A stretch of 62,316 nucleotides of DNA from the NCBI GenBank assembly GCA_003552465.1, contig PULQ01000025.1:1-62316 (forward strand), read 5' to 3'. How positions within the stretch are numbered: position 1 is the stretch's first letter; the number at the start of each line of letters is the position of its first letter. Under the pieces are notes generated by a model that was not told where the DNA came from, made no database searches, and saw only the letters and a list, made by a program, of their open reading frames with translations. This document shows, piece by piece, positions 28,049-39,626 of the stretch. The position numbers were made by a program, and so were the translations under genes. Source of the stretch: Dehalococcoidia bacterium (GTDB taxonomy: Bacteria; Chloroflexota; Dehalococcoidia; GIF9; AB-539-J10).

Positions 28049-28723
28049 ATGGACATGGATGACAGGATCAGAAACGCGATGGAGCACACGGAGCTCGTCC
28101 GGGCTCCCAAACAGGAACTGTCCACCTTCGGAAGTTCCGTGGTCGACTACTACGTGGTCACCGAACTGGTGGGAAACGTCAGCGTGGTCAGGGACGGCAG
28201 GGTGATTGCCGAGAGGCCCAGGATCGTCACTCCCGCCTATTTGATCAACGTGGAGGGTTTCAGTGATCAGGCCAGGAGTTACATATCGATGCTGGCCCGC
28301 GAGCGCCCCCATGAGTCCGGTATCTTCTACCGCTACAAGAACGAACCGAAGGACATGAACGTCGTCTCCGAACCTTCACGACAGGTCATCGACAAGCTCA
28401 ACGCCCGTATAGATGAACAGCGCAACCCTCTGAGCACGATCATAAAGGGTGTCGAGGAGATGTGGGATGTGTCCCTGCTCATGTTCATCTACGAGCTGAC
28501 CAACAGGTCGCTGCGTACCAACATAGCGGATTTGGACCGCCGGGGACTGCTCGACACCGACTCCAGCGGGGTGCCCGAGGGCGCCCGCAACTACATCGAA
28601 GAGCTGTTTGAGGATGTAAGCCGGAACCTCGCAAGGGCACCGGAACTTGTACTCGAACTTCATCGCTGGGGTGTGTTCTCGGAATACCAGGACCGTTTCT
28701 TCAGGCTATTCAGGAATAGGTGA
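28049..28723 (+). CDS. Conserved hypothetical protein
   Basis: 224-aa ORF in operon position with plausible soluble composition. No recognised motif. Confidence 0.7.
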   Translation: MDMDDRIRNAMEHTELVRAPKQELSTFGSSVVDYYVVTELVGNVSVVRDGRVIAERPRIVTPAYLINVEGFSDQARSYISMLARERPHESGIFYRYKNEPKDMNVVSEPSRQVIDKLNARIDEQRNPLSTIIKGVEEMWDVSLLMFIYELTNRSLRTNIADLDRRGLLDTDSSGVPEGARNYIEELFEDVSRNLARAPELVLELHRWGVFSEYQDRFFRLFRNR

Positions 28724-29531
28724 GGCCCCCGGCCGACATCAGCCCCATATACCAGCCCAGCATCTGACTCCCCCAGATCAGCGTTATCATGGTGGCAATC
28801 GCCAGGAACGGGCCGAAAGGGAGTGTCTCGCGGAATCGCCTTCTCCGGGCGATCATAAGCGCCACCGCCACCAGGCTGCCGATCACAGCGGCCAGCACGA
28901 TAGCCAGTATCACCAGTGGAAAACCTGTCGCCAGGCCGATCACAGCCATCAGCTTGACATCTCCCCAGCCCATGCCCCCACGGGAGACTACGGCGATCAG
29001 GAAGAACAGGCCAAAGCCGACCGCTCCGCCCATGGCGGCGTTGGCGATCCCGGTGGTCACAAGACGTCCTTCCTCCATCCACGGTTGTGGCACCAGCGCC
29101 AGGAGCACTGCCACGATGATTGCCGGGTACACTACCTTGTTCAGTATCAGGCCGTGCTCGATATCGATGACGAAGATCACCGTGAACAGACAGGCATAGA
29201 AGGCCAGTATGCCGAACTGTGGACTCAGTCCATAGTGCCAGAAGAGCAGGGCAAATATCAGGCCGGTGGCCAGCTCCACCCAGAGCAGCTTTGACGGCAC
29301 CCTGGTACTGCAGTAGCGGCAGCGGCCGCGCAGCCGTAGATAGCTGAATATCGGGATCAGGTCCGTTAGCCCCAGCCTGTGCCTGCAGGCCTCGCAGTGC
29401 GAAGGGGGTCGAACGACCGACAGGTCACGGGGAAGGCGGTCGATGCACACATTGAGGAAGCTGCCTACCAGCAGGCCCAGAACACCGAACAGAAACGCTC
29501 CGGCGAAATCCACGGACTGTATTGTGGTCAC
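28710..29531 (-). CDS. pilD: Type IV prepilin peptidase (A24)
   Basis: GSFLNVCIDRLP, PPSHCEAC, RGRCRYC, IDIEH, MGWGDVKL, LPFGPFL. Confidence 0.93.
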   Translation of the reverse strand: MTTIQSVDFAGAFLFGVLGLLVGSFLNVCIDRLPRDLSVVRPPSHCEACRHRLGLTDLIPIFSYLRLRGRCRYCSTRVPSKLLWVELATGLIFALLFWHYGLSPQFGILAFYACLFTVIFVIDIEHGLILNKVVYPAIIVAVLLALVPQPWMEEGRLVTTGIANAAMGGAVGFGLFFLIAVVSRGGMGWGDVKLMAVIGLATGFPLVILAIVLAAVIGSLVAVALMIARRRRFRETLPFGPFLAIATMITLIWGSQMLGWYMGLMSAGGLTYS

Positions 29532-29702: not shown

Positions 29703-29804
29703 TGTCATCGCGAGCCCCGACACACCACCCTATTGTCATCACAGTCCTGACACACCACCCTATTGTCATCGCGAGTCCCGACGCAGTCGGGACGTGGCGA
29801 TCTC
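29703..29804. repeat. About 30-nt tandem units ending in a TGTC-tagged palindromic element
   Basis: TGTCATC(G/A)C...GACACACCACCCTAT at 29703 and 29734, then TGTCATCGCGAGTCCCGACGCAGTCGGGACGTGGCGATCTC at 29764. Confidence 0.75.
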
Positions 29805-30900: not shown

Positions 30901-32571
30901 GTGAGAAAGCTATTTGGAGTATCGCTCGTCGTGGCACTGGTGCTGAGCTTCAGCCTGGTGGTCACCACGACGGTGTCAGCAAGCCCTGCTGATTGGTATG
31001 TGGATGCGGTGAATGGGGACGACGGGAACGATGGCTTGAGTTGGGCAACCGCGTTCGCAACCATAGTCAAGGCGATGGATGAGGCAAGCGGCGGCGACAC
31101 AATCATGGTGGCGGCGGGGACGTACGCGGAGAACATCACCGTGGACAAATCGCTGGAACTGCTAGGACCCAATCAAGGGAAGCCTGGTTGTGCAGACGAC
31201 CGTGTGTCAGAGGCAGTGCTGGAGGGTCCGGAGATACGGATCACTGCTGCCAACGTGATTATTGACGGTTTCAGAATGGCAGGTCCGAGCACCAGCGGGA
31301 ATGCATTGCGTGCTCAAGCAGGAGCCAACGGACTGACTATCCGTCACAACATCATTGAAGTTGGAATGTATGTTGTGGCAGTGATAGACGACTTCACGTA
31401 CAGTTACAACCTGGCGCGCGACCTGCTGCTGTGCAGCCCGCCAACCGCGACCAACGTCATCTATGCCACGTCAAGCGGGGGCGAAAACTGGGCCATCACC
31501 AACAACAAGATGGTGGAGATCCGAAACGGCATCGTACTGGAGATTCCCGGTCAGTTCAGAAATCTGACGTTCAGCGAGAACGAGGTGCTTGAGTTCACGC
31601 ACTGTGGCGTGAACATTGGCCAGGGCACCACCGTGGGAGACCTTACCATCACCGATAACACTTTCTGGACACCCAAAACGGGTGCGCTCGGCGTATTCTT
31701 CTGGTATACGGGTGCCGGTGTTGCTGTTGATCCAGATGCCGTCATAACGATTACGGGCAATGATATAGTTGCACCATATGGCTTGTTCCTTGCAGCTTCA
31801 GCTGTTGGATCAGGTGCGACGGTGGATGTTGCGCACAATAAGATCCGAGAAAACGACGTTGCAGTGTGGGTATACACAGCCGAAATGGCAGGGATCATTA
31901 ATCGCATCAGTTACAACTTCATCGGTTTCAACACATGGGGCATACTTATCGAGGACGGTGCGGACCCCAGTGGCATCAGCGTAGATCACAACGCTATTTG
32001 CTGCAATACGATAGGCGTTGATAACCGTGACTCGGAACCTTTTGACGCTACCAACAACTGGTGGGGCTCCAACGACGGTCCCGGTGGGGACGGACCTGGA
32101 AAGGGCGATGTGGTGACAGGCAATGTCATATACGACCCGTGGCTGGTGCTTACATTGACGGCCGATCCTCCGAGTGTGGCGCCGGGTGGAACCTCTGTGA
32201 TAACCGCTGACGCGACCATGAACTCTGATGGGGTTGATACAGGAGCCAGTATACCTGATGGTACGCCAATCCTGTTCGCAACCACCAGTGGTTCAGTAGA
32301 TCCAGAGCTGGCCATCGCCCAGGATGGCGTTGCCGTCACAACCTATACTGCGGGCACAGAACCGGGGATCGTATCAGCTACAGCTCCGTGCTATCCTGAG
32401 AACATAGAGGTGTTAGACATTCCTCTGGCGCCTGTTCCCAGTTTTACGGTCGGCTGGGAGGGCTCGCCCGTTGACAGGCTAAAGGTTATGGCGCCCTGGC
32501 TTGTCCTGCTGGCAGGCATCATCGCTGGGGCGAGCGTGCTTTTGATGCGGCGACGCGGGGTCCGGGTCTAG
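30901..32571 (+). CDS. Secreted parallel beta-helix protein with Ig-like domain and C-terminal TM anchor
   Basis: RBS AGGAGG before GTG, signal peptide, WYVD..NGDDGNDG.SW.TAF.TI, ATNNWWG, tail VGWEGSPVDRLKVMAPW-TM-RRR. Confidence 0.85.
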   Translation: MRKLFGVSLVVALVLSFSLVVTTTVSASPADWYVDAVNGDDGNDGLSWATAFATIVKAMDEASGGDTIMVAAGTYAENITVDKSLELLGPNQGKPGCADDRVSEAVLEGPEIRITAANVIIDGFRMAGPSTSGNALRAQAGANGLTIRHNIIEVGMYVVAVIDDFTYSYNLARDLLLCSPPTATNVIYATSSGGENWAITNNKMVEIRNGIVLEIPGQFRNLTFSENEVLEFTHCGVNIGQGTTVGDLTITDNTFWTPKTGALGVFFWYTGAGVAVDPDAVITITGNDIVAPYGLFLAASAVGSGATVDVAHNKIRENDVAVWVYTAEMAGIINRISYNFIGFNTWGILIEDGADPSGISVDHNAICCNTIGVDNRDSEPFDATNNWWGSNDGPGGDGPGKGDVVTGNVIYDPWLVLTLTADPPSVAPGGTSVITADATMNSDGVDTGASIPDGTPILFATTSGSVDPELAIAQDGVAVTTYTAGTEPGIVSATAPCYPENIEVLDIPLAPVPSFTVGWEGSPVDRLKVMAPWLVLLAGIIAGASVLLMRRRGVRV

Positions 32572-32848
32572 GGAACATACCTGATCACTGGTAGGGGGTG
32601 ACCACAGGAGTGGAGATCGACCCCGCCCCTGCGGCCCCCTACCGTTTGTATCGCTGGTAGGGAGAACCGCAAGGGGAGGCTGTCGAGACTCCGGCGGCAT
32701 CGGAGATCTTGGCGAGGTCGAAATTCCCCTGACTCTCACTCTCTTCCCCAGGGGAGAGAGGATTTGGCGTCTGGGGCAGAGCCGCCGGGGCAGGTGTGTT
32801 GACGAGGCAGTGCCATTGGGGGTCTGGGGGCGCAGGCCCCAGCGCAGC

Positions 32849-33024
32849 TGTTATTGTGAGCGGAGCGCGGCAATCTCGCCTCCTGCCTGTCTTTGCGAGC
32901 GCAGTGGGGCAATCTGGGTGGGGTCAGGGGCAACCAGATCGCCACATCCCGATTTCATCGGATCTCGCGATGACAATTCTCCGCCTGTGATTCTGAGTCC
33001 CGATCCAATCGGGACTCAGAATCT
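32849..33024. repeat. Cluster of TGTC-type palindromic repeats
   Basis: TGTTATTGTGAGC...GCAATCT, TGTCTTTGCGAGC...GCAATCT, GATCGCCAC...TCGCGATGACA, GATTCTGAGTCCCGATCCAATCGGGACTCAGAATC. Confidence 0.7.
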
Positions 33025-33117
33025 CCTGGGGTTCTTGGGGAAGTGCCTGAGACCCTTCGCCAACATCTCGTCGACTCAGGGTGACAGGGGTACTGGGACT
33101 CGTGCTGTCGGACCGGG

Positions 33118-33141
33118 CACGACCCTAAATGGTCGCACTAC
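33118..33141 (-). repeat. GTAG-type REP
   Basis: Minus strand GTAGTGCGACCATTTAGGGTCGTG, a variant of the window's REP consensus. Confidence 0.7.
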
Positions 33142-33252
33142 AGAGGTTGGGCGGGAGAGGATTGGGCACAGCCTTCGATATCGTTCGGGGCAGAAGCTTT
33201 ACAGGGCGGCATGAGCACCTGTAACATGAGGGTGTAACAAACAGGCCGTACG

Positions 33253-33413
33253 ATGACCAGGCGGAAACTTGGGAAATCCGACCAAGCCGGAACATGAGTA
33301 GGCGGGAATCCAGTAAGCCGCCCGGGCCCGAACATGACCAAACGCAGATCCAGGAGGCCGACCAGGCTGGAACATGAGTAAGCGAAAGCTGAAGAAGGGG
33401 GCCAGGCCAGGTC
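33253..33413 (+). repeat. Four degenerate 40-41 nt tandem units, each starting with ATG
   Basis: ATG at 33253, 33294, 33334 and 33374. The last three are preceded by GAAC. Units begin M-T/S-R/K-R. Confidence 0.65.
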
Positions 33414-34285
33414 AACCCGCCAGGAAGCAGGGCGGAGTGCCTGGCTTCATCAGGCGCCTGCCCTGGTACGCCCGGCTGGGCCTGGGTACGGCGATTGTCG
33501 GCGTGGTTGTTCTTGCCGTGGTTCTTGTAGCCGGCGGGTACCCCGCGGACACCACTGCTGGGCCGAGGGCGGCGATCGTCGACCAGCTCTATAACCTTCA
33601 GCCTAACCCGGAGTTCGTGGCGAATGTTACCGCCCAGCTTGAGGACTTCGGTTTCGAGGTCGACCTCTACCAGGGCGACGAAATCGATGTTAGTTTCTAC
33701 CGGGGGCTGGCAAGGCGCGGTCACAGCCTGATCCTCTTTAGAGTCCATGCCGGCCTGGTGATAAGTAACGGGGAGGCGCTTGACAGGACTCTGCTGTTCA
33801 CCAATGAGGAGTACAGTACCGGCAGGTACCCGACCGAGCAGATAACCGCCCGTCTCGGGAGGGGGTCTGCCGGGGAAGGCCATCCCATGATGTTCGGCAT
33901 AACCGCGGACTTCGTCTCCAGCAGGACCAGCATGTCCGGGACATTCGATGACACCGTGATCATCATGATGGGGTGCTCGGCCCTCTACTACGACGACCTG
34001 GCCAGGGCGTTCATCGGCAGGGGCGCCTCGGCCTACCTGGGGTGGTACGGCAGCGTACTCCTGCACTACGTGGATGAGGCGACTCCCTACCTGATGCGGC
34101 AGCTGTGTTTCGAGGAGGCGACCATAAAGGAGGCGGTTGACAGGACGATGGACCCGGAGGAGGGCATAGGCCTGGACCCGAGGTACAAGGCGGGGCTCAG
34201 ATACTATCCCGAGCGGATCGGCGACAGGACGCTGGCGGAACTGCTGCAGATGGTGTTCGATACTGAAGAGCATGCAGCGAAATAG
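33374..34285 (+). CDS. Membrane-anchored protein with putative clan CD (caspase/gingipain/CHAT-like) His-Cys dyad
   Basis: Basic N-terminus, single TM, strand-His LILFRVHAG, strand-Cys VIIMMGCS, LARAFIGRGASAYLGW. Confidence 0.6.
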   Translation: MSKRKLKKGARPGQPARKQGGVPGFIRRLPWYARLGLGTAIVGVVVLAVVLVAGGYPADTTAGPRAAIVDQLYNLQPNPEFVANVTAQLEDFGFEVDLYQGDEIDVSFYRGLARRGHSLILFRVHAGLVISNGEALDRTLLFTNEEYSTGRYPTEQITARLGRGSAGEGHPMMFGITADFVSSRTSMSGTFDDTVIIMMGCSALYYDDLARAFIGRGASAYLGWYGSVLLHYVDEATPYLMRQLCFEEATIKEAVDRTMDPEEGIGLDPRYKAGLRYYPERIGDRTLAELLQMVFDTEEHAAK

Positions 34286-36369: not shown

Positions 36370-38148
36370 ATGAAACAGGTGATTGGTTTGGTGCTTGCGC
36401 TGGTGCTGGGTTTGGGGCTGGTGATTGGCATGCCAGCAGTGGCTGCCCCCGGCACGACCTATTACGTGTGTGCCGAAACTGGTCATGACAATAATAATGG
36501 TAGTGATCCGGAGAATGCTTTTGCCACCATTCAGCATGCCATAGGAGAAGCGTCTGGCGGCGATACCATCGAGGTGCTGGGCGGTATTTATGAGGAAGAT
36601 CTGGTCATTCCTGATGGCAAGGACGGTCTTGAGATCAAGGGCGCTGGCCGGGATGTCACCACGATCAGAGGTGTGTTAACGGAACCGTGGGACAAGTGGC
36701 CATTGGCAACGCCGAATATCGAGATCCTCTCGAATGGAGTCAGGATTCACGGCTTCACTATGGAGAGTCCGTTTGTTCCCCCAGGTCACTATTCCAGCGG
36801 CATAGTACTAACGGGTACTGATGTCGAGATCTTCGACAATGTGTTCGCGTTTGTGGGCGACGATAACAGCGGATCCGTTGGTGTTCAGACGTATAGTGAT
36901 GATGCGCTGCCCGGTAGCAATATTGGCGGGCTGAGGATATACGACAACACCTTCGACGGGACGGTCGATATCTACCAGGGCATATTCATAAACCGTGACA
37001 ACGGTGGAGGCATAGTTACCATAGAGAACAATGAGTTCAGCGGTAATGTCATGAGGGCTGTCGTCACCGGACGCTCCAACACTGTGATCAGCGGCAACGA
37101 GATGACGAGTGCGATCCCGGGCTACGGCATCACCGTCAGGGACCGGGATGGGCTGGATCAGGAGAGTATTGAGATCAAGGGCAATACCGTGGAGGGATTG
37201 CTGGTTGGGATGGTGATAGGACACGACAAGCAAGAGCTGACCGACATCAGGATCGCAGGGAACACCATAAGGGATAACGGTACAGGCGTTCGTGTCGCCG
37301 CATCCGCAGGAGTGGTGACGGTAGACCTCAACAATATCGTTGACAACACCGACTGGGGGGTGTTGAACACGGGCACCGCCACTCTGAAGGCCCGTTATAA
37401 TTGGTGGGGGCACGAGACCGGGCCCGATCATGAAGGGCTCAATCTGGGTGGCCAGGGCAATGCCGTAAGTGACGGTATCCATATCGGTCCCTGGCTTTAC
37501 CGACCTCATGAGCAGTTCGTCTCCGGCGCTCCCTGCTACGCGGGTTCGATAGCGCTTACCAATGAAGCGACTGAGGTCGAGGTGGGCAGCTATGCGGGTG
37601 GCTGGAACGGCTTCTCGACGCCCATCGCGCTGGATAGCTCAGCCAATACAGTGAGCAAGCTCCTCGACCTGACGACGGGAAGCGGCTTGTTTATCGAAAG
37701 GGCTCAGCGTTTCGACATCGCTGAACAGGCCTGGGTACCGATGATAATGGGCAACCAGTTGGTGGGTCCCGACTATACCATAAGGCCGGGCGAAGGCTTC
37801 TTCATACAGGTGCGGAGTGCGGGCAGCATTCCGATCCTGGTAAGAACTGATGCAACTGTGCCGCCAAGTCGAAACCTGGTTGCCGACTGGAACCTGGTCG
37901 GACTGTCGAGCCTGCAGGCAGAGACTGTAACGACTGCTCTATCCGGCGTGGATTACAGTTTTGTGCTGAGTCCCAAGCCACCTAATGCTGAGCACTGGAG
38001 CGTTCCTCCCTATGCAGCGGACGATACCTTTCTAGAGGTCGGTGAAGTTTACTGGGTGGCCATGAGCGAACCTGGCAGCCTGTTTGGCATAACCACGACG
38101 CCGGTGGCAGACGACATGATCTGGGACCTCAACCAGTTAGATGAATAG
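36370..38148 (+). CDS. Secreted parallel beta-helix surface protein with C-terminal WN..STP/WNLVG domain
   Basis: Signal peptide, YYV....G.D.N.G....AFATIQ.AI, ARYNWWG, GWNGFSTP...PGEGFFI...WNLVG...GEVYWV. Confidence 0.82.
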   Translation: MKQVIGLVLALVLGLGLVIGMPAVAAPGTTYYVCAETGHDNNNGSDPENAFATIQHAIGEASGGDTIEVLGGIYEEDLVIPDGKDGLEIKGAGRDVTTIRGVLTEPWDKWPLATPNIEILSNGVRIHGFTMESPFVPPGHYSSGIVLTGTDVEIFDNVFAFVGDDNSGSVGVQTYSDDALPGSNIGGLRIYDNTFDGTVDIYQGIFINRDNGGGIVTIENNEFSGNVMRAVVTGRSNTVISGNEMTSAIPGYGITVRDRDGLDQESIEIKGNTVEGLLVGMVIGHDKQELTDIRIAGNTIRDNGTGVRVAASAGVVTVDLNNIVDNTDWGVLNTGTATLKARYNWWGHETGPDHEGLNLGGQGNAVSDGIHIGPWLYRPHEQFVSGAPCYAGSIALTNEATEVEVGSYAGGWNGFSTPIALDSSANTVSKLLDLTTGSGLFIERAQRFDIAEQAWVPMIMGNQLVGPDYTIRPGEGFFIQVRSAGSIPILVRTDATVPPSRNLVADWNLVGLSSLQAETVTTALSGVDYSFVLSPKPPNAEHWSVPPYAADDTFLEVGEVYWVAMSEPGSLFGITTTPVADDMIWDLNQLDE

Positions 38149-38216
38149 TGTAACGAACTCAAGAAGGGGGGCGGAGGCAATTCGTGCCGTGCAGGTTGGT
38201 ACTGAAGAAGGTGAAC

Positions 38217-39626
38217 ATGAATAATTGGAGTTCAAGAAGATCGAGACTTGCCATCTGTGGCTTGCTGGTTCTGATGCTACTGATTGCTGTTGCGCCTGCC
38301 GGTCCCGTTATTGGTGATGTGGGTTCGGGTCACGGATTCTACGGCACCGTTAAGCTGGATGGCGAGGATGCTGCCGTAGGCACGGTGGTCAGCGCTCGGG
38401 TGGGCGGAGTTGAGTACGGCAGGGATGAGATTACCGTTGCCGGAGAGTACGGCCTGATAGTCCAGGGTGATATTGACGAGGGCGCTACCATTGAATTCTA
38501 TGTTCCCGGCGGGAAGGCAGATCAGACTCATCCGTTCCATAGCGGCTGGACCACCACACTTGACCTGACGGCGACCACGCCAGCTTACACCCTGACCATG
38601 GTGGCAGACCCTGAGGTCGGTGGCAACGCCAGTGATCTGACTGGTGAGCCGTCTTACGCGGCGGGCAGCGAAGTGGAGATAGAGGCGGCTGCCAGTGAGG
38701 GCTACCGGTTTGCCGAATGGACGTCTCCGGCAGGGGAGTTCGTGGATCGCTTCATGACAGTAACCACCTTCATCATGCCGGCTCAGGATGTGACCGTTAC
38801 CGCCAACTTCGTGGAGGCCTACGCGCTCAATGTGACATGGAGTCCCGAGGAAGGCGGCACGGCGTTTGATGATACCAAGGATGCACCCTACGCGGCAGGC
38901 ACCGCAGTTAACATAACAGCTGTGCCCGAACAGGGATACATGTTCGTGAACTGGACGTCCGATCCGGAGGAGATCATCGACAATGAGTTGGCTGCGCAGA
39001 CCTTCCTGACTATGCCCGCCGGGGACGTGACCGTCACCGCCAGCTTCCAGGTACGGCCCGAGGATCCTACGGTGACTACGGGCGCGGCCACCGACATCAC
39101 GACCCGCGCCGCGGTGATCAGTATGACCTACACCACCGGGAACTACAGCGAGGTAGACGTGAGGTTTGCCATCAAGAAGGCCGTTGACGTAACGTGGGTC
39201 CATTATCCTTGGGTGTCCAGGACGGAGGACGGCACCTATTCCTATGGGGAGACGGAGCTCGCCTCGAATACAGAGTACGAGTTCAAAGCACAGCTCAAGT
39301 ATGATGGTACCGTGATCGAAGGCGAGGTCCGCCGGTTCATTACAGCCAGCCAGGCGGATATCATTTTCCCCCCGTTCTGCTTTATCGCCACCGCAGCCTA
39401 TGGAACTCCGAGCGCTGAGCAGATCGACGTCTTGCGGGAGTTCCGGGATGTCGTCTTGATTCAGAACAGTCTGGGCTTCCGGTTCGTGTCTTTGTACTAT
39501 CAGTTCAGTCCTCCCGTGGCGGAAGTCATATCTGAGAGCAGCCTCTTGAGGACCCTGACCAGGGAGCTCCTGGTTGACCCTGTCGTCTGGATAGTTGAAG
39601 CTACCGGGCACCTATGGCGCAAGTAG
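38217..39626 (+). CDS. CFI-box-CTERM surface protein with two InlB-B-like repeats
   Basis: Signal peptide, HGFYG.V domain, GY.F..WT repeats, CFIATAAYGTP...LREFRD...FV.LYY..SPP. Confidence 0.85.
   Translation: MNNWSSRRSRLAICGLLVLMLLIAVAPAGPVIGDVGSGHGFYGTVKLDGEDAAVGTVVSARVGGVEYGRDEITVAGEYGLIVQGDIDEGATIEFYVPGGKADQTHPFHSGWTTTLDLTATTPAYTLTMVADPEVGGNASDLTGEPSYAAGSEVEIEAAASEGYRFAEWTSPAGEFVDRFMTVTTFIMPAQDVTVTANFVEAYALNVTWSPEEGGTAFDDTKDAPYAAGTAVNITAVPEQGYMFVNWTSDPEEIIDNELAAQTFLTMPAGDVTVTASFQVRPEDPTVTTGAATDITTRAAVISMTYTTGNYSEVDVRFAIKKAVDVTWVHYPWVSRTEDGTYSYGETELASNTEYEFKAQLKYDGTVIEGEVRRFITASQADIIFPPFCFIATAAYGTPSAEQIDVLREFRDVVLIQNSLGFRFVSLYYQFSPPVAEVISESSLLRTLTRELLVDPVVWIVEATGHLWRK

Follow-up and report, generated by a model that had tools for sequence, protein, structure and literature searches.

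A 62,316-nt stretch of the genome of Dehalococcoidia bacterium GCA_003552465.1 (contig PULQ01000025.1, here called the window; genome size 1.8 Mb) holds two consecutive genes that probably form a sorting-signal and processing-enzyme pair. The first encodes a surface protein with a distinctive C-terminal tail (the tail gene), and the second encodes a putative dedicated tail-processing peptidase (the enzyme gene; Table 1). The enzyme is most likely a cysteine peptidase of clan CD, anchored in the membrane with type II topology, that cuts Sec-exported, tail-anchored proteins at or near a VGG motif. The original prediction for this DNA had described the first product as ending in a motif, a transmembrane segment and basic residues, without LPxTG, PEP or PGF, and the second as a single-transmembrane protein with a His (HAG) and a Cys (GCS), each following a strand. 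Both descriptions held: the tail has this layout and stays below the cut-off of every NCBIfam CTERM model, and the His and Cys, now numbered His125 and Cys201, are both invariant. The suggestion that the peptidase may process the tag is supported by the sequence comparisons and structure predictions described here.

We examined the tail as a possible sorting signal by scanning the genome and then searching with a hidden Markov model (HMM) of the tail. The C terminus of the window protein runs from VGWEGSPVDRLKVMAPW through the LVLLAGIIAGASVLLM helix to RRRGVRV, and the HMM found eight copies of this tail in the genome (E = 1e-24 to 4e-9): one in the window, one each on contigs C67, C13, C165 and C54, and three on C31. 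Because these eight copies sit on unrelated passengers (beta-helix, propeller plus SpaA-like, DUF7507/DUF11 and Big_1), the tail is not a chance pattern. The complete tail proteins carry N-terminal signal peptides. The consensus of this tail, class A, is P-x-V-G-(G/W)-x3-P-(V/I)-N-(K/R)-L-x2-L-x-P-W followed by the helix and RRR, and a wider variant, class B, reads VGG(I/V)AE.P, spacer, helix and WYARRR; the VG(G/W) is predicted to lie ~15 residues outside the membrane in class A and 25-30 residues outside it in class B. None of the NCBIfam CTERM models (LPXTG, PEP-, PGF-, GlyGly-, MYXO-, GVDTG-CTERM and others) reached its cut-off on the tail, the best being MprA_tail with 15.9 bits against a cut-off of 19.7, covering the helix and Arg part only. 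A tail-only search of a 5.8-billion-protein set, where matches this short cannot reach significance, returned the query alone. Tails greatly outnumber enzymes: this genome has eight tails and two enzymes, and of two closed genomes, each with two enzymes, one has at least 21 tails and the other at least 19. The tail has the layout of a tripartite sorting signal, several unrelated carriers per genome and many copies per enzyme.

Adjacency of the two genes had been part of the original prediction, and it held in the window insofar as the enzyme gene is the next gene on the same strand, but the two do not directly abut, being separated by an 802-bp spacer. Across the family the adjacency that had been anticipated is clear. 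The same genome encodes a second enzyme paralog (contig C17, 53% identity), which closes a cluster of three tail genes and immediately follows one of them. We compared 41 related loci from named metagenome-assembled genomes (L001 and following). Among the 38 related loci that could be tested, ~27 had a same-strand tail gene directly upstream of the enzyme gene (chance p ~1e-45, with tail genes making up ≤1% of genes). The tail HMM detected it just upstream in L001, L002, L005, L006, L007, L014, L015 and L016, and for the distant loci, L019-L040, the product of the upstream gene has a class B tail at its end. The same arrangement was found in genomes G240, G115, G036, G078, G128, G223, G186, G153 and G244 and, twice each, in G234 and G190, and the distance from tail gene to enzyme gene is usually 40-300 nt. 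One protein of the representative library, P0213 (879 aa), joins in frame a large tail protein, its helix, a basic loop, and the helix and domain of the enzyme; either a natural fusion or the loss of a stop codon could account for it, and its topology is a compatible one. No third gene was conserved next to the pair across the whole family, and neither an acceptor nor a partner gene was conserved.

The expected co-occurrence of tail and enzyme across genomes was also strong, even inside one genus. At the level of the taxonomic class, the enzyme is patchily distributed (25 of 251 genomes), and it is present in 17 of the 18 tail-positive genomes (Fisher p = 2e-19), including all eight genomes with class A tails and all nine with several full-length class B tails. 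At the order level, both partners were present in 26 of 151 genomes, the enzyme only in three (one of these a fragment), the tail only in eight and neither in 114 (Fisher p = 5e-19); 26 of the 28 order genomes with a substantial enzyme match also have tails. Related genomes enter these statistics as independent cases. The pattern within the window's own genus (13 genomes with both, one with the tail only, 17 with neither), together with the match between enzyme clade and tail class, partly answers the concern that kinship underlies the association. The enzyme tree has two clades, one with all the class A neighbours and the other with all the class B neighbours; tail and enzyme have co-diversified.

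The enzyme family is large and has no name in Pfam or NCBIfam. Close relatives number more than 693, mostly in Dehalococcoidia and all unnamed or annotated as "hypothetical protein", and the family comprises 2467 representatives at 50% identity among 1.84 billion proteins, nearly all of them 250-330 aa long. Scans of the enzyme against Pfam, NCBIfam and PADLOC models were empty, 28 family members gave no Pfam match, peptidase families included, even at E ≤ 10, and searches of PDB sequences with family profiles A1 and A4 returned chance-level matches only. Judged by sequence profile, the enzyme does not fall into any of the named clan CD families C14 (caspase/metacaspase), C25 (gingipain/PorU), C13 (legumain/Gpi8), C11 (clostripain) or CHAT (PF12770).

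Predicted structure points to clan CD nonetheless. The full-length AlphaFold model of the enzyme has a mean predicted local distance difference test (pLDDT) score of 80.7, and residues 60-295 modelled alone reach a pLDDT of 95.0 and a predicted template modelling (pTM) score of 0.92. Whole-domain Foldseek matches to this model in the PDB (220-250 columns) were to clan CD peptidases only, with TM-scores (TMq) of 0.39-0.53 and probabilities of 0.97-1.0: SAVED-CHAT 8tl0 (0.50-0.53), the CHAT domain of DdvA (0.51), RgpB (0.47), Csx29 (0.46), caspase-11 (0.45) and separase (0.39-0.41). Flavodoxin matches covered only ~165 columns with TMq below 0.3. His125 precedes Cys201, each comes directly after a hydrophobic strand, and a Gly follows in the HAG motif, which is the clan CD order. 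The model thereby suggests a clan CD fold, as the original prediction had envisaged with its clan-CD-like peptidase, together with the His-then-Cys order, and TM-scores of ~0.5 indicate a remote relation to the known clan CD peptidases.

A catalytically dead caspase-fold protein, serving as scaffold or receptor, might also lack sequence similarity to every active peptidase family, as this enzyme does. We regard that as very improbable, since Asp70-Gln71, His125, Gly200-Cys201 and Asp268-Pro269, along with Trp224, are invariant in a 36-sequence alignment spanning 33-100% identity, and the family is as broad as its 2467 representatives.

Several findings weigh against a dedicated tail-processing peptidase. 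Sequence and profile methods give no link to clan CD, Pfam and PDB searches both being empty; hhalign against 16 Chloroflexota CHAT domains gave a probability of 4.8%, with the Cys motifs aligned and the His motifs not; and the link comes from predicted structure, with TM-scores of only ~0.5. The two genes in the window are 802 bp apart and may have separate transcripts, and ~11 testable loci are without a tail gene directly upstream. Eight of the 34 tail-bearing order genomes had no enzyme in a broad profile re-search at E ≤ 1, one class-level tail genome is likewise without a detectable enzyme, and no enzyme was found behind the tail genes of the tail-only genomes where sequence exists. These tail-only genomes are 80-95% complete and some absences may be assembly gaps; their excess over the expectation from completeness suggests that tails can persist without the enzyme. 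Because of these eight genomes, the coupling of tail and enzyme is imperfect.

The same eight genomes would fit a tail that is a plain, uncut membrane anchor, with an enzyme that acts on the passengers, on a propeptide or in quality control of the envelope and shares only its regulation with the surface-protein genes; the clustering of passenger genes in surface-protein islands with CFI-box and leucine-rich-repeat (LRR) proteins would fit it too. We nevertheless consider this explanation unlikely. A mere anchor does not need the extramembrane motif that is conserved on unrelated passengers, tail class switches along with enzyme clade, genomes with the enzyme nearly always have tails (26/28), and the distribution of CFI-box surface proteins does not follow that of the enzyme.

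This last observation also bears on what else the enzyme might cut. The original prediction had named the nearby CFI-box-CTERM proteins as alternative substrates, and their genes do lie within ~4-8 kb of the enzyme gene in the window and in L001-L006. Their distribution across the 151 order genomes, however, shows no association with the enzyme (odds ratio 1.7, Fisher p = 0.21): CFI-box proteins are present in 62 of these genomes, including all 17 genus members that have neither enzyme nor tail, and absent from 14 enzyme-bearing genomes. On these grounds we rejected them as substrates, and there is very little chance that they are the proteins on which the enzyme acts.

A different possibility is that the tail is a true sorting signal read by another enzyme (a sortase, exosortase/archaeosortase, rhomboid or CPBP protein), the caspase-fold protein being an accessory. 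Precedent speaks for it, in that the sorting enzymes so far assigned to motif-helix-Arg tails all come from those families (10.1101/2023.06.07.544157). Searches of the genome for sortases (PF04203) and exosortases/archaeosortases (PF09721) were empty although the controls were detected, rhomboid and CPBP proteins not being included in the search; no further gene is conserved beside the pair across the family, and the invariant His and Cys argue for catalysis by the caspase-fold protein itself. Such an arrangement seems improbable to us.

For a dedicated tail-processing peptidase, we propose the following sequence of events. Tail proteins would leave the cytoplasm by the Sec route, directed by their N-terminal signal peptide, and would stay tethered to the cytoplasmic membrane through the C-terminal helix, the Arg cluster remaining inside. 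The 303-aa enzyme, anchored by its single N-terminal helix, would present its caspase/CHAT-fold domain outside the cell and recognise the VG(G/W) motif, and the His125/Cys201 dyad would cut at or near VGG by way of an acyl-enzyme intermediate. That intermediate could be resolved by water, leading to release, or by an envelope nucleophile, leading to re-anchoring as in sortases. The membrane topology, the cleavage at or near VGG and the fate of the cleaved protein are parts of this scheme that we infer.

Re-anchoring would make the enzyme a transpeptidase, a caspase-fold 'sortase' of the wall-less Dehalococcoidia, other Chloroflexota and some Bathyarchaeia that joins the VGG-cut C terminus to a membrane lipid or to an S-layer or envelope glycan. 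We put this forward tentatively, as a possibility with less than even prospects. If true, the enzyme would be a prokaryotic equivalent of the eukaryotic glycosylphosphatidylinositol (GPI) transamidase, the enzyme classes that act on tripartite C-terminal sorting signals would number six, and a transpeptidase with a short motif might serve as a protein-ligation tool, like sortase A and butelase.

By analogy, the closest working parallels are PorU and the GPI transamidase Gpi8/PIGK. Gpi8/PIGK (family C13, clan CD) is membrane-anchored, reads a C-terminal signal in which small residues and a spacer precede a hydrophobic tail, and replaces that tail with an anchor; GPI signals have no Arg cluster, and the GPI transamidase is a five-subunit complex of the endoplasmic reticulum. 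The pair described here would, by prediction, resemble it in combining a membrane-anchored clan CD-type enzyme with a C-terminal tail of motif, spacer and hydrophobic stretch. Gpi8, however, is not among the top 50 fold matches of the enzyme, and the pair has no known anchor donor. In type IX secretion, PorU transpeptidates its substrates onto an envelope glycolipid (PMC4560394, PMC8545088). The likeness lies in a caspase/gingipain-fold cysteine peptidase that removes a C-terminal signal from many unrelated surface proteins, removal being a proposal for the enzyme described here, and a gingipain, RgpB, is one of the structures matched over the whole domain. PorU differs in that its signal is a folded C-terminal beta-sandwich domain (~80 residues) and that it works at the diderm outer membrane as part of a large secretion machine, whereas the pair here has a short motif-helix-Arg tail in the cytoplasmic membrane and an enzyme with its own single membrane anchor, in which no C25 sequence similarity is detectable.

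Tripartite signals are known for Sortase A/LPXTG, PEP-CTERM/exosortase, PGF-CTERM/archaeosortase A, GlyGly-CTERM/rhombosortase and MYXO-CTERM/myxosortase (10.1101/2023.06.07.544157; PMC11980579). The tail shares with them a motif, helix and basic cluster at the extreme C terminus and many tails per enzyme, and the enzyme is predicted to be, like sortase A, a type II membrane protein of the Cys/His kind whose domain faces the outside of the cell. The motif is different, however, the predicted enzyme fold is unlike all five enzyme classes, and the enzyme gene follows immediately after a substrate gene with much greater regularity than in those systems. The best whole-domain structural matches are CHAT proteases (SAVED-CHAT, Csx29/TPR-CHAT of Craspase and the anti-sigma factor DdvA), but the enzyme has no match to the Pfam CHAT model PF12770, in line with the low hhalign probability. 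The CHAT proteins of Chloroflexota are multidomain and mostly several hundred to ~1,900 residues long, whereas the enzyme family is of 250-330 aa with a domain predicted to lie outside the cell.

We know of no account of how the wall-less Dehalococcoidia, which have no peptidoglycan, attach and release their surface proteins, and the pair is a concrete candidate mechanism for both. As proposed, it would bring a further enzyme fold to the few machineries known for reading tripartite C-terminal tails, and models of the tail and the enzyme would allow the surface proteomes of uncultured Chloroflexota to be predicted from sequence. Full-text literature searches found no published description of a tail/enzyme pair of this kind, and the sorting-signal catalogue contains neither this tail nor a caspase-fold enzyme (10.1101/2023.06.07.544157). 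Together these observations point to the pair as a candidate new way of sorting surface proteins.

Variations on the gene arrangement were seen in several loci. Tandem second enzyme copies lie beside the first at L013:8843-9763 and L019:10851-11630, and in L022 tail genes stand on both sides of the enzyme gene. A small two-gene pair is inserted between tail gene and enzyme gene at L014:1004-1497 and L016:563-1056, and from its sequence this insert resembles a toxin-antitoxin module. At L021:8821-10759, on a 79.8-kb contig with a Bathyarchaeia label, the gene for a tail protein (…VGGYVVLADKPALLAPY-helix-KRAARRK) precedes that for an enzyme homolog by 53 nt; CofE (F420 ligase) and a proteasome subunit are encoded nearby on this contig, and the pair seems to cross the domain boundary into archaea.

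In the genome of the window, the start of contig C31 and the end of contig C17 overlap inside one 654-aa DUF7507/DUF11 tail protein. The joined contigs carry, in this order, three tail genes plus an LRR/InlB-repeat gene, the enzyme paralog and a gene for a geranylgeranyl-reductase-like flavin adenine dinucleotide (FAD) oxidoreductase. A paralogous oxidoreductase gene follows a tail gene on C67 and follows the enzyme gene in L001 and L002. We considered this oxidoreductase as a conserved partner and rejected it, as it occurs only in these close relatives (C17, C67, L001 and L002).

The features of the pair in the window are collected in Table 1.

Table 1. Features of the tail gene, the enzyme gene and the spacer between them (positions in the window).
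Feature	Position	Strand	Basis
Gene for a 556-aa secreted beta-helix surface protein (DUF1565/NosD-like) with C-terminal tail, candidate substrate	30901-32571	+	Open reading frame (ORF), start site, family matches
Predicted N-terminal signal peptide, MRKLFGVSLVVALVLSFSLVVTTTVSAS	30901-30984	+	Read from sequence: basic N terminus, hydrophobic core, small-residue site
Tail signature motif VGWEGSPVDRLKVMAPW, fitting the class A consensus VG(G/W)xxxP(V/I)N(K/R)LxxLxPW	32449-32499	+	Recurs in eight proteins of the genome and in related loci
Hydrophobic membrane-spanning segment of the tail, LVLLAGIIAGASVLLM	32500-32547	+	Sequence
Basic cluster RRRGVRV (32548-32568) and stop codon	32548-32571	+	Sequence
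802-bp spacer between tail gene and enzyme gene, with short local repeats and a 40-nt tandem repeat	32572-33373		Sequence
Gene for a 303-aa single-pass membrane protein with caspase/CHAT-like predicted fold, candidate tail-processing cysteine peptidase	33374-34285	+	ORF, homologs, model
Basic N terminus of the enzyme, predicted intracellular	33374-33469	+	Positive-inside rule
Membrane helix of the enzyme, ARLGLGTAIVGVVVLAVVLVAGGY, ~residues 33-56 (31-54 in the model)	33470-33541	+	Model and sequence
Catalytic domain, residues 60-295, predicted extracytoplasmic	33551-34258	+	AlphaFold model, whole-domain Foldseek matches
Codon of invariant His125 (LILFRVHAG), right after strand 119-123	33746-33748	+	Alignment, model
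Codon of invariant Cys201 (VIIMMGCSA), right after strand 194-198	33974-33976	+	Alignment, model

The tail gene starts with GTG, 7 nt downstream of a GGAGG. Its product matches Pfam DUF1565 (4.9e-07) and NosD/LIC10774-like models of NCBIfam, has a right-handed beta-helix, and is recorded in identical form as database protein P0121. The enzyme has ten Lys or Arg among its first 36 residues, and its soluble domain comprises ~240 residues.

The 40-nt unit of the spacer (CCGACCAGGCTGGAACATGAGTAAGCG...) is present in four head-to-tail copies at 33237-33384. Because the last copy contains the ATG of the enzyme gene (33374), the earlier copies carry ATG-like decoys. The unit had no other occurrence elsewhere in the genome, the spacer repeats being local and not part of a genome-wide element. 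A 42-nt inverted repeat (86% complementary; 29762-29803 and 32936-32977, 3.1 kb apart) flanks the tail gene, with further short palindromes on both sides, and may be a cassette boundary or recombination site.

A prepilin peptidase (A24) gene lies on the opposite strand 1.4 kb upstream of the tail gene (28710-29531). This gene and the other flanking genes of the window, for a metallo-beta-lactamase (MBL) hydrolase and uvrC, were found in none of the related loci. The genome has 12 CFI-box matches. Downstream of the enzyme gene (36370-39626) are a second beta-helix protein, without a tail, and CFI-box-CTERM proteins. The close relatives L001 and L002 have the same arrangement of a tail-less beta-helix protein and CFI-box-CTERM proteins at 14-19 kb, and this region looks like a conserved surface-protein island.

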